Below are positions 1 through 37,088 of a DNA stretch of 42,250 nt, piece by piece. Numbering within the stretch: the stretch's first letter is position 1; every line of letters begins with the position of its first letter. The position numbers and the translations under genes are program-made. Where the stretch lies: NCBI GenBank assembly GCA_046598345.1, contig JBKJIT010000001.1, positions 1 through 42,250 on the forward strand. The letters are read 5' to 3'. The stretch is from Minisyncoccia bacterium. Lineage in GTDB: Bacteria > Patescibacteriota > Minisyncoccia > Phycocordibacterales > UBA918. The notes beneath the pieces are model-generated. The model saw only the letters and a program-made list of their open reading frames with translations. It was not told the DNA's origin and did no database searches.

Positions 1-75
1 GAGGACGGTACAGGCTTCATATCGTGCTCCTTACGTCCGCGCGATGTATTCAGCCTCTTCGATCCCTTAGGCTCA
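1..75 (-). repeat. tRNA-linked cassette type B with antisense T-arm of tRNA-Arg(GCG); runs off window start
   Basis: Plus strand 58-67 TTCGATCCCT equals the T-arm of the tRNA at 10904-10975, so it is antisense on the tRNA strand. Minus strand reads GAA-GAGGCT...ATCG..CGAT..GAAGCCT-GTACC-GTCC, closely resembling the cassette after tRNA-Leu (35560-35660). Confidence 0.7.
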
Positions 76-87
76 TTGAAAATAGTA

Positions 88-189
88 TATCTTGGCGTCA
101 GCTCACTAATTCACTTCGTTCATAAGTGGCTCCTGCCCGGTCTCGCGTTTGTGGCATGAGGAATAGCCACAACATCGCTCCGACTCACA
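88..189 (-). repeat. tRNA-linked structured cassette type A, copy 1
   Basis: Minus-strand core GGGCAGGAGCCACTTATGAACGAAGTGAATTAGTGAGCTGACGCC; clearly homologous to 32577-32680, 26304-26400 and 30525-30616. Confidence 0.85.
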
Positions 190-235
190 AACGCAAAACG
201 ACTTGAAGCAGTTCAAGTCGTTTTGTCTTATTGTG
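186..235 (-). terminator. Long hairpin, the probable original 3' flank of tRNA-Arg(GCG)
   Basis: CAAAACGACTTGAA-GCAG-TTCAAGTCGTTTTG inverted repeat with CACAA/TTGTG outer arms. It has the same style as the hairpins directly after the other five tRNAs. Confidence 0.65.
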
Positions 236-406
236 CAGGCGACTTATGGCTTTCAGAACTGTTCCAAAGCAGATACGATATTAGGACTGCAATACAGAGG
301 TTGGACGCGATGTTTGTTTAAAATGACCTACAATTACCTACAATGCTGGCTGGATGGACTCTCTGCAGCTGCAAAAAATACCCCTTAATGTTAGTATATC
401 GTCACA

Positions 407-1504
407 ATGTCTAAGAAAGTGATCTTCAAATTAGCTGAATTGTTTTGCGGACCCGGAGGTCTGTCACTGGGAGCTACCCGGGCAAAACTTAAACACCAGG
501 ACAACATCTATGAGGTGACGCCTATTTGGGCAAATGACATTGATGAGGACACTTGTAATACCTACGCAAGCAATCTTCACGATGGAAATCGGGAAAATGT
601 CATATGTGCTCCTGTGGAAACAATCGACTTTAAAAAAGTCCCCCGTTTTGATGCCCTAGCTTTTGGTTTTCCTTGTAATGATTTTTCTCTCGTAGGTGAG
701 CAGAAAGGTTTTGATGGAAAATTCGGACCCTTATATTCCTACGGTGTGCGAGCCATTGAAGCCCACAGCCCAAAGTGGTTTTTTGCTGAAAATGTAGGGG
801 GTCTACAGAGCGCTAACGGCGGTGAAGCATTTAAACAAATTCTTCGTGATTTAGAAAGCGCTGGTAAGGGTTATGAGATTACTCCCCATCTTTATAAATT
901 TGAAGAATATGGAGTTCCTCAATTGAGACATCGTGTTGTCATTATTGGCATTAGGAAAGATCTTGGATTGAAGTTTAGAGTACCCGCTCCTACAACAAAA
1001 GATAAGTACCTTACTATGCAGGAAATCTTAGAAGATGACCCAATTCCTCTGAATGCAAGAAATCATGAACTTACCAAACAATCTGCAATTGTAGTGGAAA
1101 GGTTGAGTCACATACCGCCAGGTCAAAATGCTTGGTACGAAGGCATACCTTTACACCTACGTTTGAATGTAAAAGGGGCTCGAATGAGTCAGATTTATCG
1201 AAAGCTACATCCTAATAAACCCTCCTACACTCTCACAGGGAGTGGTGGTGGTGGAACGCATGGTTATCATTGGAAGGAAAACCGAGCCCTTACCAATAGA
1301 GAGCGAGCAAGAATCCAAACGTTCCCTGACAGTTTCTTCTTTATGGGTTCTAAAGAAAGCGTTCGCAAGCAAATAGGTATGGCTGTTCCGCCGAAGGGTG
1401 CGCAAGTGATAGTAGAAGCTATTTTGAAGACTTTTGCCCGAAAGAGCTATTCATCTATTGAACAAAAATTCAAACTTGAAGAAATCTTGAGAGAAATCTT
1501 ATAA
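407..1504 (+). CDS. dcm: DNA (cytosine-5) methyltransferase
   Basis: Motif I LFCGPGG, motif IV GFPCNDFS, motif VI ENV, PQxRxR, and C-terminal RERARIQTFPD...IGMAVPP. Confidence 0.96.
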   Translation: MSKKVIFKLAELFCGPGGLSLGATRAKLKHQDNIYEVTPIWANDIDEDTCNTYASNLHDGNRENVICAPVETIDFKKVPRFDALAFGFPCNDFSLVGEQKGFDGKFGPLYSYGVRAIEAHSPKWFFAENVGGLQSANGGEAFKQILRDLESAGKGYEITPHLYKFEEYGVPQLRHRVVIIGIRKDLGLKFRVPAPTTKDKYLTMQEILEDDPIPLNARNHELTKQSAIVVERLSHIPPGQNAWYEGIPLHLRLNVKGARMSQIYRKLHPNKPSYTLTGSGGGGTHGYHWKENRALTNRERARIQTFPDSFFFMGSKESVRKQIGMAVPPKGAQVIVEAILKTFARKSYSSIEQKFKLEEILREIL

Positions 1505-2344
1505 TCGAGCTATTAGTTGTTTCCAAGAGGTTTCCTCTTTATGCATTAGGCCTGAAGGTATTACATACCTGACACCAGTAAACTCCTGTCCGGGAATACT
1601 AGTTACTTCTTTCAGATCCTTTTCTTCACACCATCCTGCAATTTCATACGGAATTTCTTCAAAGCCCGGGATTAGATCTTTATATCTATCAAAGTGTTGA
1701 TGTCCTTCCATAAGTTCCTTTACTTTATCCTTAGAAATCCTAAGCAGATGATCGTCTGGTATGTCTACTCTACAAAATATATATACATCAGATTTTCTTC
1801 CTTCTCTAACATCACCCTCACTTAAAACGAGGTAACTACTCTTAGGCTTTGAGGTTTTGATGCCGACACCAATTCTAGGTGTTCTTCTAACACCTTCGTC
1901 TGTGATAAAAGAAACATCCTGTGCCACAAACTCGTCTCTGATTTCAAAATCTAATTCTATATCGATGTTAAATTTTTCTTTAAGAAACTTCTGAAATGCT
2001 AATTCACCTAATTGCCCTTTCATCCAGTTACTAACTTTTTGCCCAAACTCCCTTTTCCGCCCGGTTCCAAAATCAGAGTTAACGTAATTTTTATAATGCA
2101 TTGCTAATGCAAAATCTAAACAACGAGTATAGTCCTCAAAACTAAGCACCCCTGACCTCCAATTAAAACTTTGTTTCCAAGCTTCTAAGTCACTTATCTT
2201 AAACTTAAAGAATCCTCTATTGCTGGGTCTTAGTAGCGCATTGAATTCCCGAGCATTCTTAAAGTAATTATCAAAGGTTTTAGCGTCTATATTTAAAAAG
2301 GCAATTGCCTGCTTTTTTGCAACAATTTCATCTATAGTTTCCAT
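1499..2344 (-). CDS. Putative restriction endonuclease (PD-(D/E)XK-like) with N-terminal HTH-like region
   Basis: Convergent with the MTase. It has a GQLGE..QD..GIKTSK nuclease-like pattern, and the N-terminal AIAFLNIDAKTFDNY resembles an excisionase-type HTH. Start METIDE lies 7 nt after TATACT. Confidence 0.65.
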   Translation of the reverse strand: METIDEIVAKKQAIAFLNIDAKTFDNYFKNAREFNALLRPSNRGFFKFKISDLEAWKQSFNWRSGVLSFEDYTRCLDFALAMHYKNYVNSDFGTGRKREFGQKVSNWMKGQLGELAFQKFLKEKFNIDIELDFEIRDEFVAQDVSFITDEGVRRTPRIGVGIKTSKPKSSYLVLSEGDVREGRKSDVYIFCRVDIPDDHLLRISKDKVKELMEGHQHFDRYKDLIPGFEEIPYEIAGWCEEKDLKEVTSIPGQEFTGVRYVIPSGLMHKEETSWKQLIARL

Positions 2345-2564
2345 CGTAAATAGTATAGCAGAGCGTTTCACCCAGTTTGTCCTTAGTCACGCTCACCCTT
2401 TTATAGCGTTACTACACCAAGCTTTTTATAGTGTGAACAAATTGATCACGAAATTCCATTCCAAATCCATTGCATTTCTAGATAATTGGTATTTTTCTTG
2501 TACAGCAGACTATCGGAAGGGTAGTAGAAAGTGAGGTTATACCAGGTCTTTTATGCTGAAAATG

Positions 2565-2903
2565 CTAGGTTTTGTAGGGTTCTTCTTTTGATTCAGCTTT
2601 CTCTTTAAGAAAAGAGATGCCATTCTTGTATCCATCTTCTGTAATAGCTTTCATTTCAAAGTGAGTGGGCTTTTTAAAAAGGACGTCACCTTTTTTTTGG
2701 AGATCAGCAACTGTTCTCGCCACCCATTCGTTTACGGCTCTTTCGTTAACTTCTATTCTGTTTAAACCTTGACTCAGATACTCATAAGAGGCACATAGTA
2801 ATACTTCTGTTTTACGATTAGATTGATCTGAAATAAACTCCACTTTAGTCCAGAAACTATCAGTCGAGAAATCTCTATACAACTTACCTGTAATAGTTTG
2901 CAT
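2565..2903 (-). CDS. Hypothetical protein, 112 aa, directly downstream of the DUF3800 gene
   Basis: ATG-started ORF, 9 nt gap to the upstream gene, natural composition. Confidence 0.7.
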   Translation of the reverse strand: MQTITGKLYRDFSTDSFWTKVEFISDQSNRKTEVLLCASYEYLSQGLNRIEVNERAVNEWVARTVADLQKKGDVLFKKPTHFEMKAITEDGYKNGISFLKEKAESKEEPYKT

Positions 2904-2912
2904 GTCTATACA

Positions 2913-3734
2913 TTATACCTGACTAATCAGTCGATTAAACTTTGCTTGTAGATTATTTTTAGCTGTTCGACACCATTCTTGTGAAGTTCTTATGGGATAG
3001 ATATTGAAGCCACTACCAGTTATTTTCATACCTACACCCCTATCGACAGCCCAGAAGTTATTCTTTATTTGGGGTAAAAAATTGTGTCCCATTTCTCTAA
3101 AACTTACGAAAATTGCTCCTAATACCACATCGTTAATTTGATGCAAATAACTATCTTCGTTTTCAACCTGTATTATAGGCAACGCAATTTTTTTTAAAAT
3201 ATATCGACTAGTATCTCTAGTACCTCCATTGGGGAACAGGTCAATGCAATGCAAATCCATATCAGACTTTACAGCATCCCCAAAGCGATCTGCCATGACT
3301 ATGCCGTAATTCTCTCTGCCTAGGTACTGGTCAAATTGATACAGCAAATCGTTTATACCGTACTTATGGGATCGTATCTGTGTCTTGGGGTCTAATGTCA
3401 TCTTAATTTTACCATCTTCTTTTATGGTTCGACTATGATAGAACTGGTGTGGACTCAAACACACAATTAGTTTAGCTCCTGATTCAGAAAACAATGTAAG
3501 TACTTCGTCTTTAACATTACGATGCGTGTCTCCGTCTAAAGTACTTCCTTCCCAGCGTTCGTTATTCCATTTAATTGGTCTAATCTTAGGTAGTCCGTAC
3601 TTCACTTTAATATTTAAAATTCCTTCTGCTAAAGGCTTTGCCTCAGTTTCATCAACCACAATTCCACCATACATAAAAAAACCAATTTTAGTGTCCCAAG
3701 CAAGACTACTTTCATCAGCTATTAGTAGTTTCAT
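2913..3734 (-). CDS. DUF3800 family protein (RNase H-like)
   Basis: N-terminal MKLLIADES...FFMYGG and C-terminal SYLHQINDVV match the DES / Q.AD signature. Start moved to ATG 3734. Confidence 0.75.
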   Translation of the reverse strand: MKLLIADESSLAWDTKIGFFMYGGIVVDETEAKPLAEGILNIKVKYGLPKIRPIKWNNERWEGSTLDGDTHRNVKDEVLTLFSESGAKLIVCLSPHQFYHSRTIKEDGKIKMTLDPKTQIRSHKYGINDLLYQFDQYLGRENYGIVMADRFGDAVKSDMDLHCIDLFPNGGTRDTSRYILKKIALPIIQVENEDSYLHQINDVVLGAIFVSFREMGHNFLPQIKNNFWAVDRGVGMKITGSGFNIYPIRTSQEWCRTAKNNLQAKFNRLISQV

Positions 3735-3937
3735 TGCATTCCATAATATTCCTTTCATCTTCAGAAATCTATAGATGAGCTCAAACTTCCCAAGTTCTCT
3801 CACTGGGAGTAATGGTCTGCAGGTTTTGCAGGTGTCATTTGCTTCAAATTTAAAGTCTTTCACAGCGTCAGCACGTTAGCTACGCGGTCTTTTTACTTTA
3901 AAAATATGTTATTGTAGAAATACAACTGAATATAAAT

Positions 3938-4098
3938 GACCTAACCCTACAGCTCATAAGCCGTAGGTATGGTCGAAAAACGCATTCAACATAGAGAACC
4001 CGTCATTAGGGCGTTGAATGCGTTATAGAGGGAAACTTCTATAGGACCGTAAGGTCTCCTAGTGGCGGGCTTTGTGTTTTAACATAAGCCCCTACTAG
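3938..4098 (+). ncRNA. Candidate structured ncRNA or long leader (five consecutive hairpins)
   Basis: Stems at 3938-3974, 3979-4024 (12 bp perfect), 4024-4043 (GAAA loop), 4045-4056 (GTAA loop) and 4059-4098. Confidence 0.6.
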
Positions 4099-4128
4099 CG
4101 CATTAGCAACAGGGCTTTTATTTTTTAT

Positions 4129-4671
4129 ATGAAACACCTCACAAGAACCCCCCTCATGGTGGCATTTATTGTTCTACTACCCTTAGCCACTTTTGGTGCA
4201 CAAACGATGTTTACTGAGACAAGTGTGCAACGCGCATACCAATCACAGCAGAAGGAAATTGAAACTCAAATTACTTCTAATATGAAGGCTATGGTTCTTC
4301 TCTCAACAAAAGGTAGAGGGTGTTCTTGGTATCCAGAAGTTGGAAAAGCAACCTCAGCAGAAAGAGAAGCTTGCAAGAAATGGGTCGCTTTGGAAGAACA
4401 AAATAATCAGTTGAACGAGGATAAAAGAATTCTTGATGTTGCATACAAACTTCTTGTTGGTTCCTTTAAGGCGGAAGAAAAAGCGAACTTGGAAGAAACG
4501 GAGAAAACCAAAGCAGCACAACAAAAGAAACTAGATGCCATTCAGAAAAATGGATTCTACATTGAATGTAATGTTGATGGTAGTAGCTGTGTGAGATGGG
4601 TAAGCGGGTCGTGTTATCAAGAGCGTAACAAAAATGGCACGTACTCTTCCCTTAGGCAGTGTGGCGGGTAG
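4129..4671 (+). CDS. Secreted hypothetical protein with coiled coil and six Cys
   Basis: Signal peptide MKHL...ATFGA; Cys-rich C-terminus. Confidence 0.75.
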   Translation: MKHLTRTPLMVAFIVLLPLATFGAQTMFTETSVQRAYQSQQKEIETQITSNMKAMVLLSTKGRGCSWYPEVGKATSAEREACKKWVALEEQNNQLNEDKRILDVAYKLLVGSFKAEEKANLEETEKTKAAQQKKLDAIQKNGFYIECNVDGSSCVRWVSGSCYQERNKNGTYSSLRQCGG

Positions 4672-4708
4672 ATCAACGCACCAAGGTTTCATAAATAAAT
4701 GAAATTAT

Positions 4709-5536
4709 ATGGAAAATATTTACCCACTCAAAAAAAGGTCTCCTTCTAATATTTTGGGGTATTTTGAACATCTCCTGCTCGTAGAAGATGAAAATGAGGT
4801 TCTTTGCAATAGCATCAAAAATGAAATGAGTAAGATTGGGTATGAGTTAGTACCTTATTCAGCGGAAAGAGCAGATGCCAAGTCATTCCTTTCAAAAAAG
4901 GCCAGTAAATTTGTGTATCCATACAAAAACAAACAAGCACCACACAGTGATCTATATAATGTCTATGCGAAACTTGGACCCCTTATTCAAGAGGCTTGGC
5001 AGAGGCAATTGAAGACCTTAGAAAAAGATGATAATAAAAATGAAAGCGTTTCTAATGTGATACTCAATGAAAAAGTGGTTCAGAATATACGAAGTAGGTA
5101 TTCTTTAGAAGAGCTCCATAAAATCTACAGTGACCACGATCACGGCTCTGGGAGTATTTTCTCCATGAAAACTTTGACGTTAATCAAGTATGTTTCTTTG
5201 GCTTTAATTATTTTTTCTGTCTTTTTTAATTCTATTTTTTTGTCGATAATAGCTTTTGTTATGGGAACTTACTCTTTTTCACAAACAGCTAAGAATCTAG
5301 CTTATGAGGAAGGTTCATCGGATGGCATTAATGATGGCTATGAATATGGAGAGAATACTACATACCTAAGCTTGTTAGAAAATGACATGAAAGGATCATA
5401 TCTGCATCTTTGGAATCTATTATATGGAGACGGTTACAACAACCGTGAAAATCCAGACGATAAAAATTTTAATGAATTTCTTGATAAGAAAATAAAGGAA
5501 GAGGAGGACACTAAACTAGAACAAAAGGATATTTGA
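4709..5536 (+). CDS. Hypothetical membrane protein
   Basis: 275 aa ORF with a central hydrophobic hairpin (YVSLALIIFSVFFNSIFLSIIAFVMG). Confidence 0.75.
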   Translation: MENIYPLKKRSPSNILGYFEHLLLVEDENEVLCNSIKNEMSKIGYELVPYSAERADAKSFLSKKASKFVYPYKNKQAPHSDLYNVYAKLGPLIQEAWQRQLKTLEKDDNKNESVSNVILNEKVVQNIRSRYSLEELHKIYSDHDHGSGSIFSMKTLTLIKYVSLALIIFSVFFNSIFLSIIAFVMGTYSFSQTAKNLAYEEGSSDGINDGYEYGENTTYLSLLENDMKGSYLHLWNLLYGDGYNNRENPDDKNFNEFLDKKIKEEEDTKLEQKDI

Positions 5537-5715
5537 AATCGGCTAATTTCTCAAAACATTGTGCGATAGTGGTGTCGAGTGAAGGTAACTGAAGGCCCGG
5601 GGACTGTGAAATCTGCCTATTAAAGCCTATCTTTCCAACTATACTCGCATGCACTGTAAGCATGGGGCGACGACTCAAAAACAAGTTCTCAATGTTTGTT
5701 TTGTGACCAAATAAC

Positions 5716-5752
5716 AGGTTATGACAAGGTTTTACGAGGTTCTTCATAGGGA
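5716..5752. promoter_or_regulatory. Helically phased AGGTT repeats
   Basis: AGGTT at 5716, 5727 and 5737, and AGGGA at 5748. Confidence 0.4.
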
Positions 5753-6001
5753 TCATACCTACAATAACCTGCAATTTTGGAGGTTCATATCAGTCTTGTT
5801 TTTCAACCATCTCAGGTTTTTTAGGGCTTTAAGGTTTGATCGGCTACCAATTCAGCTCAGAAACAAGTCATGTCACCTTATTGAGTAAAGGCTTATATAT
5901 TTGGCTACTTTAGGCATATAAATGCGATACGGCTTGGTTTTGGACTCCCGGAGTACGTAGATTAAGCTAAGTAAAGCTAGGTTGTTGTTTAAGATTGAAA
6001 A

Positions 6002-6685
6002 ATGTATGATTTTACTATGAAACCTGGTCAGAAGAATAAAAAAGACGCTCATCTAGTACTCGACATGATTGAGCACTACCAGAAGCGTAACACCACAGAG
6101 GGTGTTACAACTATTTCTGGAACTCAAGATTTCGATCTGGATTTTGATACATTTGACGCAGTTGTCCGTGATTTGCAAACCTTTTTTAAAGATGAGATTG
6201 AAATAGTAAATATTTATGATTCCATAAATGAGGAGCATTGGTTGAATCCTCCTATGCGTGGATACCCTGAGCATCGTCCTGTTGCAGAATTGCGTATCAA
6301 AGGACCAGTTGGCAAACTTCGATCTCTTGTTGAATCAGAATATAAGAGTTTGGTTAGCAATAAAATTGAAATCATCATCGACAAAAAGCATGGTCTTTAT
6401 ATGAAATCGCATCCAGATAGATCGTATGAACTTCAGCACAAAACTAAAAATGTAGTAACAAAAAGATATCGGTTGATTGAGAAATTGATCAAAGCAAAAA
6501 GGATCGTTAGTGGTCCCAAGCTCCGGGGGGAGTTGGGTTATGAAACAATCTCTCTGGTGGGCCAGGAGATAAAGAAAATTAATAACGGTTGTCGTGAAAA
6601 GGCGGGTTTGTTTGACGATCTAATAAGCCATCAAAATACAGGTGGTTATGAAATAAATTCTCGTTACAGCATTTCATTAAAGTAA
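6002..6685 (+). CDS. Putative regulator with C-terminal winged helix (OmpR/ToxR-like)
   Basis: C-terminal LIEKL...VSGPKLRGELG...IKKIN...LISHQNTGGYEIN pattern; lies upstream of the primase. Confidence 0.6.
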   Translation: MYDFTMKPGQKNKKDAHLVLDMIEHYQKRNTTEGVTTISGTQDFDLDFDTFDAVVRDLQTFFKDEIEIVNIYDSINEEHWLNPPMRGYPEHRPVAELRIKGPVGKLRSLVESEYKSLVSNKIEIIIDKKHGLYMKSHPDRSYELQHKTKNVVTKRYRLIEKLIKAKRIVSGPKLRGELGYETISLVGQEIKKINNGCREKAGLFDDLISHQNTGGYEINSRYSISLK

Positions 6686-30314: not shown

Positions 30315-30362
30315 CATAATGACAAAGGCTCAACTTCACTGTTGAGCCTTTGTCATTAGGTT

Positions 30363-30616: not shown

Positions 30617-30712
30617 AAAATGCATTCTGATCTTGAGACGTTATCGAGATTTTTCTAAAGAAAATATTCTACACTTGAACCATTTATGTAAGCTTCAATT
30701 GGTGCATTACTT

Positions 30713-31555
30713 CTACTCCCGAATTCTCACGGAAAACGCAGGATCGTCGACATGCAAAAACGCACGTTCGTTAATGTGGTATTTTTCGCGAGCTTCGGGG
30801 AACGTGAGGTCTGTATCGATGAGTCCAAGTTCGTACGCGAGTGCATCAGAGTTTTCAGGGAGGAGTATGCGGAGACTTAAAAATGGAATCCTGTGCGGCG
30901 TAATGGTATTTACGTGCTCAACGATATTTGTCGTACAGGTATTCGTGAGCGTGTTGTAAAACTCGGGAGTGTCTCGGAGCGTATTAGCCCTTGTGAGCAT
31001 ATCGACAAAAAGTGCTGCCGCTTTATCTTTTGAAGCGCGCATGGGGTAGAGGTACACAGGATCTTTTCGGTGGTTAGCTCTTAGTGTAATGAGGTCACGC
31101 TCGTCTCCAATCACATACATGAGCTCATACGCATTAAAAAGCCCTTTCAGCGGGTGATACGTTTCTCCTTTTTCCTTTCGGATCTCGACAGAAATGGCTA
31201 GGAATTCATTGCCTTCGAATTCAAAACTGAGGAACGTGTGGGCGGAGCCGGGCACTCCAGAAAATGGCTCAACCACATACCACACTCGCTTGATTTGATT
31301 AAGGTCGAATGTTTTGTCGTAGTAATTTTCTACGTAACTTGTTGTTGAGGCGTAGGTAAAGTTCCGAATGTTATGCACGGTGACGAGGTTGCCCTCAAAT
31401 TCAGCGTACGGCAATACTTGCTGGTCTCTGTTCCAGTCCCGATCATTTGAAGGAGTGGTGCGGAGTGAAACGATGAGAAAAAGTATGCCCATCACTAGGA
31501 CAATTCCTGTAATTCCATACAAAACCCATTTGAGAACGGAGAGTGCTCGGTGCAT
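30713..31555 (-). CDS. DUF4105 (Lnb N-terminal-like) membrane-anchored protein
   Basis: N-terminal TM helix, PSNDRDW, AHTFLSF, SVEIRKE, FYNTLTNTCTTN. Confidence 0.85.
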   Translation of the reverse strand: MHRALSVLKWVLYGITGIVLVMGILFLIVSLRTTPSNDRDWNRDQQVLPYAEFEGNLVTVHNIRNFTYASTTSYVENYYDKTFDLNQIKRVWYVVEPFSGVPGSAHTFLSFEFEGNEFLAISVEIRKEKGETYHPLKGLFNAYELMYVIGDERDLITLRANHRKDPVYLYPMRASKDKAAALFVDMLTRANTLRDTPEFYNTLTNTCTTNIVEHVNTITPHRIPFLSLRILLPENSDALAYELGLIDTDLTFPEAREKYHINERAFLHVDDPAFSVRIRE

Positions 31556-31593
31556 CCATGTAGTGTAGCAAATTCCTACGCTATACTGTGGGA

Positions 31594-32205
31594 ATGCAGA
31601 AGATCATCTTACTGTGTGTCACCGGACTTCTCCTTATACTTTTTACGTATTTCTTTTTTCGGCCAATGCACATCACTAACTACCCACCAAAGGAAGGCCC
31701 GATTGTCGCATTCGGAGATAGCCTCGTTGAGGGTGTCGGGGCTGGGGAATCAGAAAATTTTGTGTCGCTCCTTTCCCTCAAAATTGGAGAGCCCATCGTC
31801 AACATGGGCGTCTCTGGAAATACGACGCGCGATGGGCTCGCGCGTATTGAGAAAGTAATCGCTCTAAAACCTCGCATTGTGATAGTGCTCCTTGGTGGTA
31901 ACGATGCACTTCGGAGAATTCCTCAGGAAGAAACATTTCAGAATTTGCGTAGCATAATTGCCCGCTTGCAGGGAGAGGGGAGTGTCGTGGTACTTCTCGG
32001 TATTCGGGGTGGCATAATTATTGACGGGTATGATACTCAATTCAAAGCACTTGCCGAGGAAACAGGGTCGGTGTACGTCGAAGATGTACTCTCCGGAATT
32101 TTTGGGAAAAATGAACTCATGGCAGATAGATTGCACCCCAATAAAGAGGGGTATAAAATCATTGCTGATCGCGTGTATGAGGAGATGATTGATATCGTTG
32201 AGTAA
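31594..32205 (+). CDS. SGNH/GDSL arylesterase
   Basis: FGDSL, GVSGNTT, LGGND, DRLHPN. Confidence 0.92.
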   Translation: MQKIILLCVTGLLLILFTYFFFRPMHITNYPPKEGPIVAFGDSLVEGVGAGESENFVSLLSLKIGEPIVNMGVSGNTTRDGLARIEKVIALKPRIVIVLLGGNDALRRIPQEETFQNLRSIIARLQGEGSVVVLLGIRGGIIIDGYDTQFKALAEETGSVYVEDVLSGIFGKNELMADRLHPNKEGYKIIADRVYEEMIDIVE

Positions 32206-32239
32206 CATATTGTAAGAAAAATCAGGCCGCTCTACTTAG

Positions 32240-32334
32240 TGGGCGATGAGGGACTTGAAACTTACAGTTTCAGTTCAGGTTGTATGACAATTTTAGTAAA
32301 TAAAAATTGTCGACAACCTTTTCAAATCCCTGAC
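32240..32334 (-). repeat. tRNA-Val-linked module: antisense T-arm, cassette B, duplicated 3' end
   Basis: Minus strand: AGGGATTTGAA-A-AGGTTG...CAACCT-GAACT-GAAAC-TGTAA-GTTTC-AAGTCCCTCATCGCCCA. Confidence 0.82.
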
Positions 32335-32382
32335 CAAAATACAAAAAACCACCAGAATAGATCTGGCAGTTTTTTGCATTTG

Positions 32383-32455
32383 TGGGCGATGAGGGATTCG
32401 AACCCCCGACCTTCTCAGTGTAAATGAGCTGCTCTACCAACTGAGCTAATCGCCC
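32383..32455 (-). tRNA. tRNA-Val(TAC)
   Basis: GGGCGAT acceptor, TTTACAC loop, GGTTCGAATCC. Confidence 0.95.
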
Positions 32456-32576
32456 GTATGTGCCTGTGTCAGCTTTTCCTTATTTCGAATCTTGGGGAGT
32501 AGCTCGTTTCCAAGTGTAAATGGTTCGACAGTTCCCCAAACTGTCTCACCTCCATCACCAGAGCGTATCGCCCATG

Positions 32577-32680
32577 TATCTCGGCGTCAGGTCACTAATT
32601 CGCCTACGCTCATAAGTGCCTCCTGCCCGGCCTCACGGTTTCGCCATTAAGGTGCAGGCGAAACATCGCTCCGGCTCACA
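32577..32680 (-). repeat. tRNA-linked cassette A copy 4 (upstream of tRNA-Val)
   Basis: Highly similar to 88-189; core GGGCAGGAGGCACTTATGAGCGTAGGCGAATTAGTGACCTGACGCC. Confidence 0.85.
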
Positions 32681-32776
32681 GACGAAATGAAAGTAAAACT
32701 GTCTACTTTCATTCATTCGTCTGTGCGCCCATAGTATCGTTTTTTGAAATTAATTCAATACGCGTATACTAGGCGC

Positions 32777-33049
32777 ATGTTTAGTGAGATTTATTGTATT
32801 GTAAGTGGAAAGGTTCAGCGAGTGGGGTATCGTGATTTTGTTGAGAAGCTTGCTAGAGAATTCCGTCTTACGGGCTGGGTGAAGAATCGTGATGAGGGAA
32901 CAGTCGAACTCGTGCTTCAGGGAATTCCTGACAATTTAAAGGCGGCGGTTGAATTTCTTAATCAAGGCTCTGTGCTTTCTAAGGTAGATAGTATGTCTGT
33001 TGATTGGCGAACACCGAAGGAACAATTTGATACTTTTAAGGTGCTCTAG
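32777..33049 (+). CDS. acyP: Acylphosphatase
   Basis: VSGKVQRVGYR, GWVKN..GTVE. Confidence 0.93.
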   Translation: MFSEIYCIVSGKVQRVGYRDFVEKLAREFRLTGWVKNRDEGTVELVLQGIPDNLKAAVEFLNQGSVLSKVDSMSVDWRTPKEQFDTFKVL

Positions 33050-33083
33050 TATTTAAGTAATGCAATGACTATAAATACTGAGC

Positions 33084-33119
33084 CGTCGTTTATTCTTCTA
33101 CACAGAAGAATAAACGACG
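33084..33119. repeat. Perfect 16 bp inverted repeat
   Basis: CGTCGTTTATTCTTCT-ACAC-AGAAGAATAAACGACG; no U-tract. Confidence 0.7.
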
Positions 33120-33175
33120 AAGGAACTCCAACAGATCACAGCTTTTTATTTTTTTGTAGTTTGATTTAATTAATT

Positions 33176-33865
33176 ATGAATTCTGAAACCATACCCTCGT
33201 GCGTCGGCTTTATCATGGACGGCAACAGGCGTTGGGCGCTGCAGCATGGAGTCGCTACAGCAAAAGGGCATGAGAAAGGATACGAAGCATTGAAACAAAC
33301 TATTGATGCGGTGTACGACGCTGGGATTCCACACATGGTCTGCTACGCCTTTTCGAGTGAAAACTGGAAACGGAGCGAGCAAGAGGTGTCGCATCTCATG
33401 TCTCTCATGGAGTATGCATTTGATGATCTCATACGAACGTTTAAGAAAAGCGAACAGAAGATCGCGGTGCGCTTTATCGGTGAACGGGAACGATTTAGCG
33501 AGCATTTCCAACAAAAGATGGTAGACGTTGAAAAAATCCATAGAGAAGATGCGCTGCTCACAGTATGGATTGCACTTTCGTATGGTGCTCGCACAGAAAT
33601 TGTACAAGCGGTCAATACAGCAGTTCTGCAGGGTGAGCGAGTTGATGAACAGTCGTTTGCTCGTATGCTCATGACTGCCGGAATGCCCGACCCAGACCTC
33701 ATCATTCGCACAAGTGGTGAGAAGCGACTTTCAAATTTTCTCCTCTTTCAGTCTGCATACAGCGAGCTCTTTTTTACTGACACACTTTGGCCAGACTTTG
33801 GAGAAGTTGAATTTAAGGGTATCCTGGACGCATATGGTAAACGCGAACGAAGAAAAGGTGCATGA
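33176..33865 (+). CDS. uppS: Undecaprenyl diphosphate synthase
   Basis: IMDGNRRWA, YAFSSENWKR, DLIIRTSGEKRLSNFL. Confidence 0.97.
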   Translation: MNSETIPSCVGFIMDGNRRWALQHGVATAKGHEKGYEALKQTIDAVYDAGIPHMVCYAFSSENWKRSEQEVSHLMSLMEYAFDDLIRTFKKSEQKIAVRFIGERERFSEHFQQKMVDVEKIHREDALLTVWIALSYGARTEIVQAVNTAVLQGERVDEQSFARMLMTAGMPDPDLIIRTSGEKRLSNFLLFQSAYSELFFTDTLWPDFGEVEFKGILDAYGKRERRKGA

Positions 33866-33954
33866 GATAACGAGCGTAGCGACTATATCGAATGTATGTC
33901 CCGATTTTTTCTCCACTAGAGAAAATCGCTGGACCCTTCAAATAATGAAATAAA

Positions 33955-34698
33955 ATGATTAAAGAAAAATTAGAACCCGAAGTTTTGTATGAGGATGCAA
34001 ATATGCTTGTCATCAGCAAACCAACAGGAATGATGGTGCATGCGGACGGACGAAGGGAGGACAAAACAGTCGTTGACTGGTTCCTTGCTCGCGCGCCAGA
34101 GGCGCGCGAGGTTGGCGAGCCAGGGTTTGCGCAGGACGGGTCACCACTTCTCCGGGCAGGAGTTGTACACCGTCTTGACGAAGATACCTCAGGACTCCTT
34201 GTGCTTGCGAAAACACAGGATGCTTTTCTCCATCTCAAAACACAATTTCAGGAACATCTCATCAAAAAAGAGTATCGTGCGTTTGTGTATGGGACGATGA
34301 AAGAAAAGTGGGGGACTATCAACCGTCTCATCGGTAGAAGTACGAAAGATTTTCGCCTTCGCTCAGCACAACGTGGTGCACGCGGCACACTACGGAGCGC
34401 GATTACCGATTGGGAGCTCATTGGGCAAACTGAGACGCATGCCTATCTGAAGCTTCTCCCTAAAACGGGAAGAACCCACCAGCTCCGGGTCCATATGAAG
34501 GCAATCGGGCGACCGATTGTGAAAGACGACCTCTACGCATCAGAGAATCTTCTTCTCGGAAACAACCTCGGATTCACACGGCTCGCACTCCATGCGTACA
34601 GTCTCAAGTTCATGGGTATCGACGGGATCGATCGGCACATTATTGCCCCCATACCCCCCGATTTTGAAGCGGCAGAGACGACTCTTGCGACTCCGTAA
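33955..34698 (+). CDS. RluA/RluD family pseudouridine synthase
   Basis: KPTG, VHRLDEDTSG, TGRTHQLRVH, LHA. Confidence 0.95.
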   Translation: MIKEKLEPEVLYEDANMLVISKPTGMMVHADGRREDKTVVDWFLARAPEAREVGEPGFAQDGSPLLRAGVVHRLDEDTSGLLVLAKTQDAFLHLKTQFQEHLIKKEYRAFVYGTMKEKWGTINRLIGRSTKDFRLRSAQRGARGTLRSAITDWELIGQTETHAYLKLLPKTGRTHQLRVHMKAIGRPIVKDDLYASENLLLGNNLGFTRLALHAYSLKFMGIDGIDRHIIAPIPPDFEAAETTLATP

Positions 34699-34775
34699 TT
34701 GCTGTGTTAAAGTACAGCACGCTTTTAAGGACTATTTCAATAATGATTCTAAGAGCCCTTTAGTTTTACTATTCT

Positions 34776-35339
34776 ATGAATACAGCACAGAGTGGAGTAA
34801 TCATTTCTCCCGTCAATATGGAAGATCGCAAGAACCTTGGCGTTAGAGCTGGGGATACTGTGCGTGTCCACCAAAAAATTAAGGACAAGGAAAAAACACG
34901 TCTCCAGGTGTTTGAAGGACTCGTACTTGGACGAAAGCACGGCAATGAAGCAGGTGCGACCTTTACCGTTCGTAAGGTTGTAGATGGAATTGGTGTAGAA
35001 AAAATCTTCCCACTCTATTCACCCCTTATCGATAAAATCGAAATTGTGAAGCGAAGTAAGGTACGAAGCGCAAAGCTTTACTACATTCGTGAGAAAGTAG
35101 CACGTGAAATTAAACGACAAATGCGTCGTATGCGACTCATGAGCCTATCGTCTGAATCTGAAACGGAGATGAAGCTCCGCGCAGAAGAGGAAGCAAAGGC
35201 AGAAGCAGCTCGTGTCGCGCAAGCTGAAGCAGACGCAAAGGCTGTTGCGGAAGCGATGAAAGCTGCAGAAGCAGAAAAAGCTGCTCAAGAAACTCCAGAA
35301 GTAACGACGGAACCAGTTGCAGAAGAAGTAAAGAATTAA
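34776..35339 (+). CDS. rplS: 50S ribosomal protein L19 with Ala/Glu-rich tail
   Basis: [39 protein letters not shown]. Confidence 0.97.
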
Positions 35340-35340
35340 C

Positions 35341-35370
35341 AAAAAAACCGGCCTGTCGGCCGGTTTTTTT
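35341..35370 (+). terminator. Bidirectional intrinsic terminator
   Basis: A7-CCGGCC-TGTC-GGCCGG-T7. Confidence 0.85.
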
Positions 35371-35432
35371 GTTCTGTAAGTTTGCAAAACAACTAAAAAT
35401 CCTTAGAATGAGTGGGCTTTAAAAGAGCACAT

Positions 35433-35514
35433 GCCCAGGTGGTGAAATTGGTATACACGTATGCTTGAGGTGCATATGCCGCAAGGTGTGGAGGTTCAAG
35501 TCCTCTCCTGGGCA
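35433..35514 (+). tRNA. tRNA-Leu(GAG)
   Basis: GCCCAGG acceptor, TATGC-TTGAGGT-GCATA anticodon arm, variable arm, GGTTCAAGTCC. Confidence 0.95.
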
Positions 35515-35559
35515 CAGTCGCTGAAAAACCCCGCAAGGGGCTTTTTCTTTGCGCGACTA

Positions 35560-35660
35560 TGCCCAGGAGAGGACTTGAAGAGTTTGAGTGTATCGCACGG
35601 AGCGAAGCGAGTACGATACGAAACCTGTACCGGTCCAATAGGGACCAAGACTTCTTTCCA
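35560..35660 (+). repeat. tRNA-Leu-linked module: perfect 20 nt antisense of the tRNA 3' end plus cassette B variant
   Basis: TGCCCAGGAGAGGACTTGAA is the reverse complement of 35495-35514; followed by GTATCG..GAGCGAAGCGA..CGATAC..GTACC-GGTCC/GGACC. Confidence 0.85.
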
Positions 35661-35684
35661 AGCTATTGAACCATTACGGAGGTA

Positions 35685-35715
35685 TTGACAATATTCAATA
35701 AAGTTGTATTATTAT
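35685..35715 (+). promoter_or_regulatory. Sigma70-like promoter
   Basis: TTGACA at 35685 and TATTAT at 35707/35710. Confidence 0.55.
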
Positions 35716-35772
35716 CCACAGTAAACACTAGCTCAACCAGTCAGCCCACGGGGGCTACATCAACTTAAGGAA

Positions 35773-36279
35773 ATGATCATGCCGGATGGAAGCACAATAA
35801 GTACTTCACCTCTTGTGAAAGAGGTGACAGAGGAGTACTTGCGTTTATTGGAGCGCGGATCTCAGCGCTTAAACAATGAGCCTCTAAATCCACGGGAGAA
35901 AGGGGCGTTTGTACGCTTTATCACGACGCTGTGTGCAAGCCTGGTCTCGAGGGAGGGCCAAACGGTGATCGCGCAGTTTGCATGTCCGGTTTACTCCGGT
36001 GTTCCACTGGGTGCACTTCCACGTACTTGGTATGTGTGTGCCAAAAACAGGCAACACCGTCGTGGCGGGAGACACAGCGGTAGCGACATTGAATATTGCT
36101 TGTGCTTAGATGGCACCACAACCTTGTATTCATCGCGTGAAGGAGTCGTAGCATCACGGAATATTCCCGTGATGACCGCAGATTTGCCAATTCTCGTGAA
36201 GGGGATCCTTGAGTTGCCTGAAGGAAGCACGAGGTTGAGACCTCTATTCGATAAACTTGAAAAGGCAGCCGGGAAGTAG
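35773..36279 (+). CDS. Hypothetical protein
   Basis: TAAGGA RBS, upstream promoter, downstream terminator. Confidence 0.7.
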   Translation: MIMPDGSTISTSPLVKEVTEEYLRLLERGSQRLNNEPLNPREKGAFVRFITTLCASLVSREGQTVIAQFACPVYSGVPLGALPRTWYVCAKNRQHRRGGRHSGSDIEYCLCLDGTTTLYSSREGVVASRNIPVMTADLPILVKGILELPEGSTRLRPLFDKLEKAAGK

Positions 36280-36284
36280 AAAGG

Positions 36285-36317
36285 AAACAGCCGTCGCCAA
36301 AAGCGACGGCTGTGTTT
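36285..36317 (+). terminator. Intrinsic terminator
   Basis: ACAGCCGTCGC-CAAAA-GCGACGGCTGT-GTTT. Confidence 0.7.
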
Positions 36318-36386
36318 GTACTTTCGCACGGCTTTAGCCTGTCTGAAGCTTTTTCTTAATTTGAGAAAATCTGTATACTGTCTCGC

Positions 36387-36833
36387 ATGCATCAACGTTG
36401 TAGAGTTCGCTGTCGCGCCATAATAATTCACGAAGGAAAACTTCTTGTGGTTAAGAATTCAAGAGGAAGCGAGTACTATGCGCTCCCCGGAGGGCATCTG
36501 GATCCGGGTGAAACTCCAGAAGAATGCATGGTACGAGAAATTGTGGAGGAGATTGGCATAACCCCAGTTATTAAAAGTCTCCTGTATGTATACACCTTCA
36601 CTGATAGAGGGGGAGAGACATCAGTTGAATTTTTCTTTGAGGCACAAAACGGTAGCGATTTTATTTCGCACGAAAAACAAGTAGGGACGCACGCACATGA
36701 ACTTTCTGAAGTTAGGTGGATAAAAAAAACGGATGAGGTACTGCTTCTTCCCGAGGAAATACATGCACATTTTAAAAATGGAAATTTTCCAGATTTAGAA
36801 CTGAAATTTCTCAAAGGGGAATCTCGACAATAA
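36387..36833 (+). CDS. NUDIX hydrolase
   Basis: Nudix box PGGHLDPGETPEECMVREIVEEIGI. Confidence 0.93.
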   Translation: MHQRCRVRCRAIIIHEGKLLVVKNSRGSEYYALPGGHLDPGETPEECMVREIVEEIGITPVIKSLLYVYTFTDRGGETSVEFFFEAQNGSDFISHEKQVGTHAHELSEVRWIKKTDEVLLLPEEIHAHFKNGNFPDLELKFLKGESRQ

Positions 36834-36867
36834 CAAGGAAAACAGCTATAAATACGACGACCGATAT

Positions 36868-36940
36868 GGTGCCTATAGTGTAATGGTTAGCACTAGAGCT
36901 TGTGGAGCTCTCTGTCAGGGTTCGAGTCCCTGTAGGCACC
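36868..36940 (+). tRNA. tRNA-His(GTG)
   Basis: G-1 plus GTGCCTA/TAGGCAC acceptor, AGAGC-TTGTGGA-GCTCT anticodon arm, GGTTCGAGTCC. Confidence 0.95.
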
Positions 36941-36989
36941 CAAATGCAAAAATACCTGGGTTTTCCCGGGTGTTTTTGTATTTAGGTCT

Positions 36990-37088
36990 GGGGCTCGAAG
37001 ACCTTGCTAGATACTTTTCGAACGAAGTGAACAAAAGTATCAGCAAGGTGTACTGAAACTGTAAGTTTCGAGCCCCTGTAGGCACCCC
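36990..37088 (+). repeat. tRNA-His-linked module: antisense T-arm, cassette B, duplicated 3' end
   Basis: GGGGCTCGAA-GACCTTGCT...GAACGAAGTGA...AGCAAGGT-GTACT-GAAAC-TGTAA-GTTTC-GAGCCCCTGTAGGCACCC. Confidence 0.85.

Follow-up and report, generated by a model that had tools for sequence, protein, structure and literature searches.

Gene-less structured modules at tRNA 3' parts in Patescibacteria, candidate insertion cassettes with locally templated arms

Five of the six tRNA genes of the window (the whole 42,250-nt stretch analysed here, from contig JBKJIT010000001.1 of a Minisyncoccia bacterium) are accompanied by small modules which recur across the whole phylum and have no match to described families. 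We give a probability of about 0.5 to the hypothesis that these modules, residing at tRNA 3' parts across Patescibacteria, are selfish insertion cassettes that lack genes and whose arms are templated locally. If X denotes the 3' stretch of the tRNA that runs from the T-loop to C74, the order of parts on the tRNA-sense strand is X, a terminator hairpin, X' (X reverse-complemented, and interrupted by a small hairpin in some units), a cassette and a second X. Modules are mosaic units of about 120-200 bp, devoid of genes, and are found at about half of the tRNA genes of this genome. Instead of the single shared structured cassette proposed in the initial annotation, three families are distinguished: A, at the Arg-TCT, Val and His loci; C, a variant of A matching the A model weakly (25.3 bits), at Leu and at the window start; and B, at Ser and in copies without arms. 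The features of the window are the following.

1-57, minus: truncated cassette C (A variant), cut by the contig end, laid out as the Leu cassette at 35580-35646
58-67, minus: 10-nt antisense T-arm piece (X'), possibly of tRNA-Arg(GCG); chance-level match
94-193, minus: cassette B without tRNA arms
194-225, strand not assigned: terminator-like hairpin with 14-nt perfect arms (inverted repeat I15)
10903-10975, minus: tRNA-Arg(GCG)
Interval separating tRNA-Arg(GCG) from the units at 1-225: island encoding a large serine recombinase
26285-26304, minus: Ser, decayed X copy with CCA at its end
26305-26399, minus: Ser, cassette B, compensatory changes in 8/12 predicted pairs
26400-26416, minus: Ser, X' antisense to T-loop and T-stem (repeats I2, I25; p=0.000)
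26417-26459, minus: Ser, terminator hairpin, apex of the X/X' palindrome (repeat I2)
26460-26547, minus: tRNA-Ser(TGA)
29959-30025, plus: 5' pseudo-fragment of tRNA-Arg(TCT), in which a hairpin separates the acceptor/D start from the anticodon arm; 18-nt sense copy, score 36 against a best cross-control of 21
30057-30201, plus: two further A-type cassettes (about 30057-30117 and 30138-30201) separated by a small repeated hairpin (repeats I5, I14); A model match at 30046-30125, 44 bits
30243-30315, plus: tRNA-Arg(TCT)
30316-30359, plus: Arg-TCT, terminator hairpin (repeat I3)
30363-30374, plus: Arg-TCT, X', 12/12 antisense
30375-30417, plus: Arg-TCT, short cassette A (P2, junction, P3), 63.4 bits
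30418-30440, plus: Arg-TCT, X copy, 21/21 and CCA
30445-30487, plus: second terminator 3' of the Arg-TCT X copy, 21-nt perfect arms (repeat I4)
30524-30614, plus: cassette B without arms
32239-32259, minus: Val, X copy, 19/21
32260-32320, minus: Val, cassette A, 64.7 bits
32321-32331, minus: Val, X', pairing with tRNA and copy, G-U allowed on the tRNA-sense strand
32337-32381, minus: Val, terminator hairpin (repeat I10)
32382-32455, minus: tRNA-Val(TAC)
32583-32676, minus: cassette B without arms, upstream of tRNA-Val
35433-35515, plus: tRNA-Leu(GAG)
35495-35579, plus: Leu, palindrome of tRNA tail, hairpin and X' with 32-nt arms, 91% complementary (repeat I1)
35560-35579, plus: Leu, X', exact 20/20 antisense match
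35580-35646, plus: Leu, cassette C, model match at 35567-35656 (25.3 bits, E=7e-4)
About 35647-35663, plus: Leu, decayed X copy read by eye, not significant in the shuffle test
36869-36941, plus: tRNA-His(GTG)
36942-36983, plus: His, terminator hairpin
36990-36999, plus: His, X', 10/10 complementary to the downstream copy and 9/10 to the tRNA
37000-37066, plus: His, cassette A, 88.7 bits; fold z -5.5 (RNA) and -6.2 (DNA)
37067-37089, plus: His, X copy, 20/21 and CCA, then a weak hairpin

The junctions between cassette and arms are fixed and specific to the cassette type, X' stopping exactly where the cassette starts. The terminator forms the apex of a second, alternative palindrome built from X and X'; the longest three short-range inverted repeats in the window are tRNA-tail palindromes of this kind, and the inverted-repeat scan found no extended palindromes at the non-tRNA terminators of the window. 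Cassette copies lacking arms and copies away from tRNAs both occur.

All coordinates of the initial annotation hold, the Ser antisense stretch being refined to 26400-26416 from about 26399-26413. When the 350 nt downstream of each tRNA were searched for antisense matches to that tRNA, the shuffle test yielded p=0.000 for Ser, Arg-TCT and Leu, the last being the perfect 20-nt match already reported, and p=0.017 for Val; His gave p=0.077 when scored against the tRNA, yet its X' is fully complementary to the downstream copy. Likewise, the sense 3'-end copies described for Ser, Arg-TCT, Val and His were all located, with p=0.000 for the latter three and p=0.087 for the gapped and decayed copy at Ser, while for Leu the shuffle test detected none. 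None of the six window tRNA genes encodes CCA, as had been noted for the Ser and Arg-TCT genes; the presence of CCA in the copies of these two loci was confirmed, but it is not restricted to them, since the His copy carries it too. Throughout the genome, own-antisense matches are significant downstream of 16/36 tRNAs and own-sense matches downstream of 15/36, against 2/36 and 1/36, respectively, in the upstream control. The claim that all six tRNA loci carry the module stands for five of them. The Arg-GCG locus (p=0.99 in the antisense test of its 350 nt downstream) fits the grammar but is not above chance: the 10-nt piece at 58-67 is 10.8 kb away from the gene, a chance match of equal length exists elsewhere in the island, and the piece is identical to the T-arm of another tRNA, Lys-CTT; it nevertheless lies at the expected place, being followed on the minus strand by the truncated Leu-type cassette.

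X', cassette A and X are predicted to fold into a three-way junction closed by an X':X stem, in which the third hairpin overlaps the T-loop letters and has a T-arm-like stem of 5 bp. The covariation is strong: in the cassette A alignment 86.4% of the cells are paired compared with 67.3% in shuffles, none of 500 shuffles reaching the observed value, changes on both sides affect 305 cells against 119 in shuffles, and slid controls give 27-52% paired. Compensatory changes are found in 8/8 pairs of P2, and the two variable pairs of P3 are paired in 65/65 sequences; for cassette B, 8/12 predicted pairs show such changes among 11 sequences. The fold is biased to the tRNA-sense strand, with 56 G-T versus 22 A-C pairs in P1 and 56 versus 0 in P3. 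Conservation of unpaired letters across classes is partly imposed by the search pattern and would also fit a functional RNA. The sites telling pairing of X' with the proximal X from pairing with the distal X number 3, 2 and 3, which is too few.

In agreement with the proposal that the tRNA-derived parts are locus-specific and the cassettes shared, cassettes of one lineage are found at more than one tRNA type, with arms that correspond to the tRNA beside them. Outside this genome, X' reaches a complementarity of 8/9 or better to the adjoining tRNA in 27/70 cases, as opposed to 8/700 for other tRNA types. Identity of the P2 helix is 0.602 within a tRNA type (n=181 pairs) and 0.584 between types (n=2292), the nearest-neighbour cassette is at the same tRNA type in 9/71 cases (5.2 expected), and the most similar pairs (0.82-0.89) are mostly at different types. 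Occupancy also varies among species of one genus: the tRNA-His locus is occupied by A in 2 genomes and by B in 3, and has no cassette in 3 more, and of seven tRNA loci with A in genome G016, 3 have A in the present genome as well, 1 has B and 3 have none. G016 also contains three tandem units, two of them identical, and in G004 the C unit, which the present genome also has, is separated from tRNA-Leu by an additional A unit. Newer units adjoin the tRNA. At tRNA-Leu(CAA), the acceptor strands of an upstream 5' fragment and of the downstream X copy pair with each other and not with the present tRNA, and by this pairing the fragments probably represent an old allele. No empty/filled allele pair was found in close strains, and no excised or circular form was seen.

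Cassette A is present in 35 of 41 relatives, including 24/24 other genomes of its own family, with 2-24 copies each. Matches extend to at least 120 stretches of GTDB genomes (Patescibacteria), and every named group among 80 listed records belongs to Patescibacteria or CPR. A same-strand tRNA lies within 450 nt upstream of 71 of 98 A-model matches, 63 of them at 27-91 nt. An identical 2-nt loop insertion is found in 5/71 X copies, which consequently were never part of a working tRNA. Viral contigs yielded no copy, their 6 pattern hits being chance matches in coding DNA. The search of Rfam 15 gave no match to the modules, and the earlier statement that they belong to no named family is upheld for that database and for the literature searched.

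Several other explanations were weighed. That the 3' trailer of the tRNA contains an RNA device acting in cis to tune tRNA output or 3' processing is possible though rather unlikely. In read-through transcripts X' would pair either with the tRNA 3' half, so that the tRNA could not fold and would be open to nucleases, or with the X copy downstream; the balance would be set by the cassette, acting as a binding domain for a protein or ligand. The two mutually exclusive pairings of X', the strand bias, the G-U pairs by which the Val X' contacts both partners, the strong covariation and the conservation of cassettes across a phylum are all consistent with such a device, and to this extent the conformational switch suggested in the initial annotation is retained. 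However, the module is preceded by a hairpin resembling an intrinsic terminator, no more than about half of the tRNAs have a module and the set differs among species of one genus, arm-less, non-tRNA and identical tandem copies exist, and X copies are often decayed or absent (29/71 tRNA-linked A cassettes have no recognisable one). It is very improbable that the modules are stand-alone tRNA-like small RNAs, mimics that are charged or titrate a tRNA-binding enzyme. In units with an anti-acceptor piece, 5' arm and X copy together rebuild the acceptor stem of the neighbour, sometimes with CCA; this pairing restored by split X' arms, the CCA of three window copies and the 5-bp stem of the third hairpin speak for a mimic, but the anti-acceptor piece is missing from most units, in other genomes CCA follows just 4/34 good X copies, the gap from terminator to X' is too small for a promoter, and the modules are not recognised by the tRNA covariance model.

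We likewise regard as improbable that no dedicated element exists, the direct repeats being scars of integrase-mediated islands since deleted, the antisense arms products of template switching at hairpins (palindrome extension), and the cassettes REP/BIME-like intergenic structured repeats gathering in the same safe spots. In favour of this reading, tRNA tails are used for integration here, as at tRNA-Arg(GCG) with its serine-recombinase island, other genomes have gene-bearing segments between tRNA and module, displaced 5' fragments lie upstream of 12/36 tRNAs, and loci are mosaics of several repeat types. Against this stand the fixed junctions particular to each cassette type, the exact end of X' at the cassette, the position of 63/98 A cassettes 27-91 nt 3' of a tRNA, the lack of extended palindromes at the non-tRNA terminators of the window, and the absence of recombinase genes from the gene-bearing segments that were examined. 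The Arg-GCG piece alone is at the level expected by chance; for the phenomenon as a whole, an origin by chance or by misassembly is refuted by the shuffle and cross controls and by at least 60 loci, taken from many independent assemblies, that share this architecture. A 32-kb Logan contig from the one public DNA run found to contain the stretch covers 26000-37400 without a difference, although it is not independent support because the run may be the source of the assembly. The suggestion of decoy att sites found no support, as the one real island of the window is at the tRNA itself and not at a copy. The favoured reading, mobile cassettes with locally templated arms, corresponds to the templated mobility scars considered in the initial annotation, and shared lineages, the presence of A, B or nothing at orthologous loci, identical tandems and the position of newer units beside the tRNA argue for it.

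Among known systems, integron attC sites have an imperfect inverted repeat closing a structured, length-variable middle, conserve structure over sequence and fold on one strand; crossover occurs at the start of the right arm, cassettes stack head to tail beside a single acceptor site and the stem has extrahelical bases. The modules resemble them in all these respects, with a fixed crossover-like junction at the right-arm start and, in a subset, a 2-nt stem bulge reminiscent of the extrahelical bases. They differ in that 10-21-nt copies of the neighbouring tRNA tail take the place of the short core sites, a conserved three-way junction forms the middle, genes are absent from most units, the acceptor is the tRNA T-loop, and the genome has no integron integrase, its only tyrosine recombinase being Xer-like (best model score 128.9 against a cut-off of 265). 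IMEX of the CTX-phage type, lacking a recombinase of their own, use the host Xer enzyme to join a folded single-stranded attP to dif, and once integrated show two inverted target-like copies about 70-100 nt apart at one end. Inverted target-like copies at such a spacing, the absence of an own recombinase, an Xer-like host enzyme and tandem arrays are common to the modules, whose target is the tRNA 3' part instead of dif, which carry no phage genes and which are known here only from integrated sequence, whereas CTX/IMEX use a single-stranded form. Integrative islands leave direct repeats of the tRNA 3' end at their att sites; the modules similarly repeat the 3' part from the T-loop, keep the tRNA intact and, by repeated use of one tRNA, form rows of fragments, but have an antisense copy, neither integrase nor cargo between repeats, and the same conserved cassette at many tRNA types.

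REP/BIME are mosaic repeats with RAYT transposases, and the modules are likewise small, structured, intergenic mosaics of motif types located after genes and overlapping terminators, in a genome with Y1/RAYT-like genes. Unlike REP/BIME, their arms are templated from the adjoining tRNA, their post-tRNA position is strict, and they do not track Y1/RAYT-like genes (8 genomes have A without Y1 and 3 have Y1 without A). The ends of IS200/IS605 elements and their miniature derivatives choose a target by pairing with a 4-5-nt guide beside a hairpin. Hairpins beside a target-complementary stretch, an undamaged target and strand specificity recall these elements, but the guide-like stretch of the modules measures 10-21 nt, a repeat of the target letters lies on the opposite side, no TnpB was found in the genome and no cassette lies beside the Y1-like genes. 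No reverse transcriptase was found in the genome either.

We hypothesize that the cassette would be the mobile part, its arms being synthesized or corrected in place from the target tRNA gene. By one route, single-stranded DNA folded into an X'-cassette-X hairpin may act as a recombination site, and a host recombinase would join it to the T-loop of the target gene, by analogy with the logic of integron attC sites and CTX phage attP. The T-loop of many tRNAs is identical when read on either strand; by a second route, the cassette 3' ends, both with T-loop-like letters, could prime on it, and copying of the tRNA tail from each end would produce an inverted arm and a direct arm. Both routes would leave the tRNA intact, and we propose that such insertions survive for this reason. 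Later insertions at the tRNA, together with unequal crossing-over between X copies, would displace older units outward, where they may persist as decaying fragments. If this reading is correct, the modules would mark a so far undescribed way of DNA insertion at tRNA genes.

The genome to which the window belongs (here G000; 943,514 bp in four contigs, C1 to C4, the window being the start of C2) encodes 36 tRNA genes and a tmRNA, and ARAGORN and Rfam call the same six tRNAs in the window. Reading of the flanks, combined with alignment of each tRNA tail to its own flanks, yielded a recurrent order of parts. Let X denote the 3' part of the tRNA, beginning with the first T of the T-loop and running through C74. 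A terminator-like hairpin then stands 3' of the tRNA gene and is followed by X' (X in reverse complement, 9-21 nt, its end always being the complement of the T-loop), then by a conserved cassette and a sense copy of X, after which a second terminator is frequent. The first hairpin caps a longer palindrome containing X and X', and X' consequently has two potential partners, the tRNA itself and the downstream copy. These tRNA-tail palindromes are the three longest short-range inverted repeats of the window. The units, of approximately 120-200 nt, are made of hairpins only; their inverted arms vary by locus in agreement with the local tRNA, and the copies have only the innermost few letters in common. 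A 32-kb contig from the one public DNA run that contains this stretch, a run which may be the source of the assembly, spans window positions 26000-37400 with zero differences; no RNA run is listed as containing the stretch. A small conserved hairpin recurs between cassettes (window 30032-30054, 30117-30139 and approximately 32528-32550, and on C4 after tRNA-Asn), and at other loci it divides X' into anti-acceptor and anti-T parts.

The flanks of all 36 tRNAs of G000 were compared with 300 shuffles per 350-nt flank, at a threshold of p<=0.01. Downstream, antisense matches to the tRNA itself reached this level in 16/36 and sense copies in 15/36; identical tests of the upstream flanks gave 2/36 and 1/36, respectively, both antisense cases being one divergent tRNA pair matching each other. 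Chance or artefact is excluded for the phenomenon as a whole. The initial annotation had attributed a self-antisense module with one shared cassette to all six tRNA loci of the window. The antisense piece was confirmed for Ser, Arg-TCT and Leu (p=0.000) and Val (0.017), and is weaker for His (p=0.077), where X' is 10/10 complementary to a downstream copy that differs from the gene by one base. The Arg-GCG piece is more doubtful, being a 10-nt match 10.8 kb from the gene, not longer than a chance match in the intervening island and of the same letters as the T-arm of another tRNA; nevertheless, its position fits the general order, on the minus strand and with a truncated Leu-type cassette directly after it. 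Instead of a single cassette there are three families, A, its variant C and the unrelated B. The CCA that had been described on the sense copies does occur on three copies in the window, but follows only 4/34 good copies in other genomes, and therefore it is not a general trait of X copies.

The integrated island between the Arg-GCG piece and its gene extends over approximately 229-10902 and harbors a C5 DNA methylase, a DUF3800 gene, a PrimPol/D5-type protein and a large serine recombinase. The following features of the window were located there:
2913-3863, minus strand: weak DUF3800 gene
3938-4057, plus strand: LOOT RNA (RF03000, 79.7 bits), beside the former
9237-10964: frame of the serine recombinase, running into tRNA-Arg(GCG), which is on the other strand
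Regarding the tRNA genes of G000, all 36 encode C at position 74; in the 30 that have no encoded CCA the base after C74 is always A or T, and six encode the full CCA, a displaced upstream 5' fragment being found at four or five of these.

In cassette A (Arg-TCT, Val and His), a conserved joiner of five bases links a long hairpin, P2, to a short one, P3, which has a loop of five bases and whose 3' strand overlaps the T-loop copy at its first letters. Cassette C, a variant of A found at Leu and, cut short, at the start of the window, is matched weakly by the model of A (25.3 bits, E=7e-4). Cassette B, found at Ser and in three arm-less copies in the window, is unrelated to A in sequence; besides a hairpin and a stem bearing a bulged base, it has a closing helix interrupted by a three-by-three internal loop. 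In all families an apical mini-hairpin of G-N-A type stands between G-A steps, and its seven-letter core occurs 190 times versus approximately 83 expected from base composition. The alignment of cassette A held 65 modules, three from the window and 62 from other genomes, out of 73 extracted, 11 mostly long or irregular modules being omitted; since it was seeded with a fixed 22-letter pattern, the apparently invariant unpaired letters are partly imposed. RNAalifold recovered P2 and P3 from these 65 modules, with compensatory changes at 8/8 basal P2 pairs, and both variable P3 pairs form in 65/65 sequences. With the closing stem X':X, 86.4% of the cells are paired versus 67.3% in shuffles (a value reached by 0/500), cells changed on both sides number 305 versus 119, and slid controls gave 27-52% pairing. 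G-T pairs exceed A-C mismatches both in the closing stem (56 versus 22) and in P3 (56 versus 0), which indicates that the tRNA-sense strand is the folding strand. The His module alone folds much better than its shuffles, with a z of -5.5 as RNA and -6.2 as DNA, and good folding was also found for the opposite strand (z of -4.8). In cassette B, compensatory changes were observed at 8/12 predicted pairs (11 sequences). The initial annotation had not matched the module to a named family, and Rfam 15 holds none for the cassettes, its matches at the gathering threshold being tRNAs and LOOT only, and at E<=5 regions 26200-37200 and 1-400 gave tRNAs and, over the modules, only weak hairpin noise. A comparison by eye with the cores of the hammerhead and other small ribozymes gave no fit, nor did Rfam match any. 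Both A and B are new structured families with good support.

One subfamily of cassette A lies away from tRNAs; a conserved 5' hairpin of its own substitutes for X', and the first pair of P3 is G-T. Its copies in G000 are:
C1:4849
C2:47549
C2:95419
C3:69212
C3:69759
C3:128920
C4:126626
C4:198134
After cassette A, a further conserved element replaces the X copy at eight tRNA-linked loci and about six others, which means that the mosaic holds more cassette types than A, B and C. In addition, X copies of different tRNAs and genomes share a recurrent 2-nt insertion at one fixed position of their T-loop part (among the strict cases AT four times and AC once); it would bulge from the X':X stem. A complete A module also follows a tRNA-like 3' end. 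The loci concerned, those with L-numbers being from GTDB genomes, are:
L017, L025, L033, L044, L049, L053, L058, L059, among others: further conserved element after cassette A
L029, L077, L090, L093 and others, and the tRNA-Asn module of G000: 2-nt insertion in the X copy
C3 of G000, approximately 191,800-192,000: A module after a 3' end not called by ARAGORN, maybe from a tRNA gene that was missed or is broken

A model derived from the cassette A alignment detected the cassette in 35/41 relatives, including 24/24 other genomes of the same family, at 2-24 copies per genome (18 in G000). The core pattern is present in at least 120 stretches of GTDB contigs, taken as one genome per species, and the groups named among the 80 records listed are all Patescibacteria or CPR (Paceibacteria/Parcubacteria groups, Minisyncoccia and Saccharibacteria-labelled MAGs), the other listed titles being 'bacterium' or 'uncultured bacterium'. 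Within these 80 listed loci, where seventeen amino-acid types of tRNA are represented, the model identified 98 copies of cassette A. A same-strand tRNA ends at most 450 nt upstream of 71 of them, in 63 cases at 27-91 nt, and for 12 of the remaining 27 the start of the locus is too near to judge. What follows the 71 tRNA-linked cassettes is an in-phase X copy of at least 19/21 identity in 29 cases, a copy with the same 2-nt loop insertion in five, a recognisable copy (15-18/21) in eight, and another cassette or nothing recognisable in 29. X' is at least 8/9 complementary to the neighbouring tRNA in 27/70 cases, versus 8/700 with other tRNA types.

The occupancy of individual loci changes between relatives. 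At the orthologous tRNA-His locus, cassette A is found in two genomes, B at the same place in three and nothing in three, and the arms always fit the tRNA-His of their own genome. Likewise, at seven sampled A-bearing tRNA loci of G016, a complete genome of the same genus, G000 has A at three, B at one and nothing at three. After tRNA-Gln, G016 carries three tandem units, two of them identical, and in the relative G004 tRNA-Leu is separated by an extra A unit from a C unit that is also present in G000, which indicates that new units enter adjacent to the gene. P2 identity is 0.602 within the same tRNA type and 0.584 between different types, the nearest-neighbour cassette stands at the same tRNA type in 9/71 cases (5.2 expected), and the closest pairs (0.82-0.89) are mostly at different tRNA types in different genomes; cassette relatedness ignores tRNA type. 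Upstream, 12/36 tRNAs of G000 have sense copies of their own 5' part, of 16-37 nt and often ending near the anticodon loop. Displaced 5' copies, a mirror image of the 3' modules, are seen at window positions 29959-30025 and at loci on C3 and C4, and at tRNA-Tyr such a copy is followed by an antisense copy of the anticodon arm. At tRNA-Leu(CAA), the acceptor strands of the upstream 5' fragment and of the downstream X copy pair mutually and not with the present gene, which points to an older allele split by incoming DNA. Taken together, the turnover, the tandems, the type-blind relatedness, these fragments and the existence of the cassette A subfamily away from tRNAs and of arm-less copies of B favour mobile, dispensable DNA in which the cassette travels and the arms are made or corrected locally. 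In search of an empty site, metagenomes were scanned with the protein encoded upstream of tRNA-His, the best identity being 49% and no close strain emerging; the joints listed in contigs of public data stem from tRNAs of other organisms, and sites informative on the partner of X' (proximal versus distal X) number only 3, 2 and 3.

In every known family tested, a defining feature fails in the units. A direct repeat of the tRNA 3' part, as in att scars, is present at 15/36 tRNAs of G000 and, at least 19/21 identical, at 34/71 loci from the 80 listed loci of other genomes, and no integrase with cargo, or remains of these, lies between the repeats, the units being hairpins only. G000 has one Xer-like tyrosine recombinase (C3:57377-58321) and, in the window, one serine recombinase sited in the separate island. 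Terminal inverted repeats conserved among copies, typical of MITEs, are lacking, the arms being locus-specific, and so is a transposase with matching ends that could serve as partner (neither RVT_1 nor TnpB was found). Neither TnpA (Y1) nor TnpB lies in or beside the units, as in IS200/IS605; a TnpB/omega-RNA reading was rejected as the genome has no TnpB, and a retron or group II intron because no reverse transcriptase was found (PF00078, 0 matches in a genome 97% complete). A RAYT/REP link was also discarded, since 8/41 genomes have cassette A without a Y1 match and three have Y1 without A. The three Y1/RAYT-like genes of G000 are:
C3:178904-179551
C2:84236-84994
C4:334508-335185
Their flanks hold no cassettes and show a different small hairpin repeat, seen near the gene at C3:178904-179551 and also near the tRNA-Glu(CTC) module. 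No integron integrase stands beside the arrays, the sole tyrosine recombinase failing the integron-integrase models (128.9 versus a cut-off of 265 and 81.4 versus 435) and passing the Xer-type model (237.4, cut-off 220). The folded imperfect palindrome, conserved structure and single-orientation stacking of attC sites recur in the units, a likeness only. Xer-dependent integrating elements (IMEX) integrate at the chromosome dimer-resolution site, and 71/98 units in the 80 listed loci follow tRNAs. A reading as box C/D-type or TIGR-Tas (PMC12045711) guide RNAs, considered for cassette B, would call for a Nop-domain or L7Ae-type partner protein and was rejected (PF01798 and PF01248, 0 matches at E<=1). 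The six pattern matches in viral contigs lie inside coding DNA and are due to chance, and a phage origin was likewise dismissed. Four loci have 1.3-1.8 kb between the tRNA, or an X-like piece, and the module, with no recombinase gene and with ORFs for DUF6671, a zinc ribbon, a DMP19-like protein, a weak DUF218 match or unknown products. In L091 (2570-4521) and L079 (6073-7850), both from other Patescibacteria genomes, segments of 1.3-1.8 kb flanked by tRNA-tail repeats lie between the tRNA and an older module; they bear small genes (DUF6671, a zinc-ribbon protein, DMP19-like) and no recombinase gene. In function the units would most resemble integron attC sites or Xer-exploiting elements, and in appearance they are closest to BIME-type mosaics; we regard them as kin of structured intergenic mosaic repeats and tRNA-targeted insertions. 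No description of the modules was found in the literature, represented mostly by the openings of abstracts, nor any mention in the passages retrieved from a MITE survey, and as far as these sources reach, the self-templated inverted and direct tRNA arms are an undescribed trait.

From the anatomy and the population behaviour, which were observed directly, we infer the mechanism, and we give a probability of about 0.5 to the units being selfish insertion cassettes with locally templated arms. Two routes fit the anatomy, each much less probable than that. In the first, the folded X'-cassette-X hairpin would be a single-stranded recombination site that a host recombinase joins to the T-loop of the tRNA, a logic shared with integron attC sites and CTX phage attP; this would agree with the head-to-tail stacks, the single orientation and the recurrent 2-nt bulge, and would require an added step for rewriting the arms. 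On both strands the ends of the cassette bear T-loop-like letters, and in many tRNAs the hexamer of the T-loop is palindromic. In the second route, both cassette 3' ends would prime on the T-loop and copy the tail, leaving one inverted and one direct arm whichever the tRNA, which would directly account for one cassette lineage serving all tRNA types. A less probable reading is that the units form a new class of guide-bearing mobile elements, in which X' would act as a programmable guide of 10-21 nt, pairing with the single-stranded 3' half of the tRNA gene or with the tRNA, and the cassette as a scaffold for a host enzyme; rewriting of X' from each new target would likewise explain one cassette lineage at all tRNA types.

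An equally new, phylum-wide family of tRNA-sensing trailer RNAs, acting in cis and switching X' between the tRNA and the decoy copy, would be compatible with the strand bias and the covariation, but it fits badly with a terminator in front, with the turnover and with decayed copies, and we hold it to be unlikely. The fragments could also be accounted for by ordinary island scars combined with palindrome extension and unrelated repeats; this would leave the fixed cassette junctions and the strict spacing unexplained, which makes it quite improbable. Less plausible still is a tRNA-like small RNA, given that it would suit only those units, a minority, that have an anti-acceptor piece.

The genomes of Patescibacteria are among the smallest of bacteria, yet dozens of intergenic sites are here given to these units, and nested fragments account for many 'partial tRNA' calls in these genomes. 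Under either reading, cassettes A and B can enter RNA and repeat libraries. Should the units prove to be RNA devices, bacterial tRNA maturation would gain its first widespread cis-regulators. If, as we favour, the units are mobile, DNA would be inserted at tRNA genes without an element-encoded enzyme, leaving the gene unharmed and rewriting the arms for each target, which would bear on tRNA genes as integration hot spots, on the loss and gain of encoded CCA and on programmable DNA insertion.
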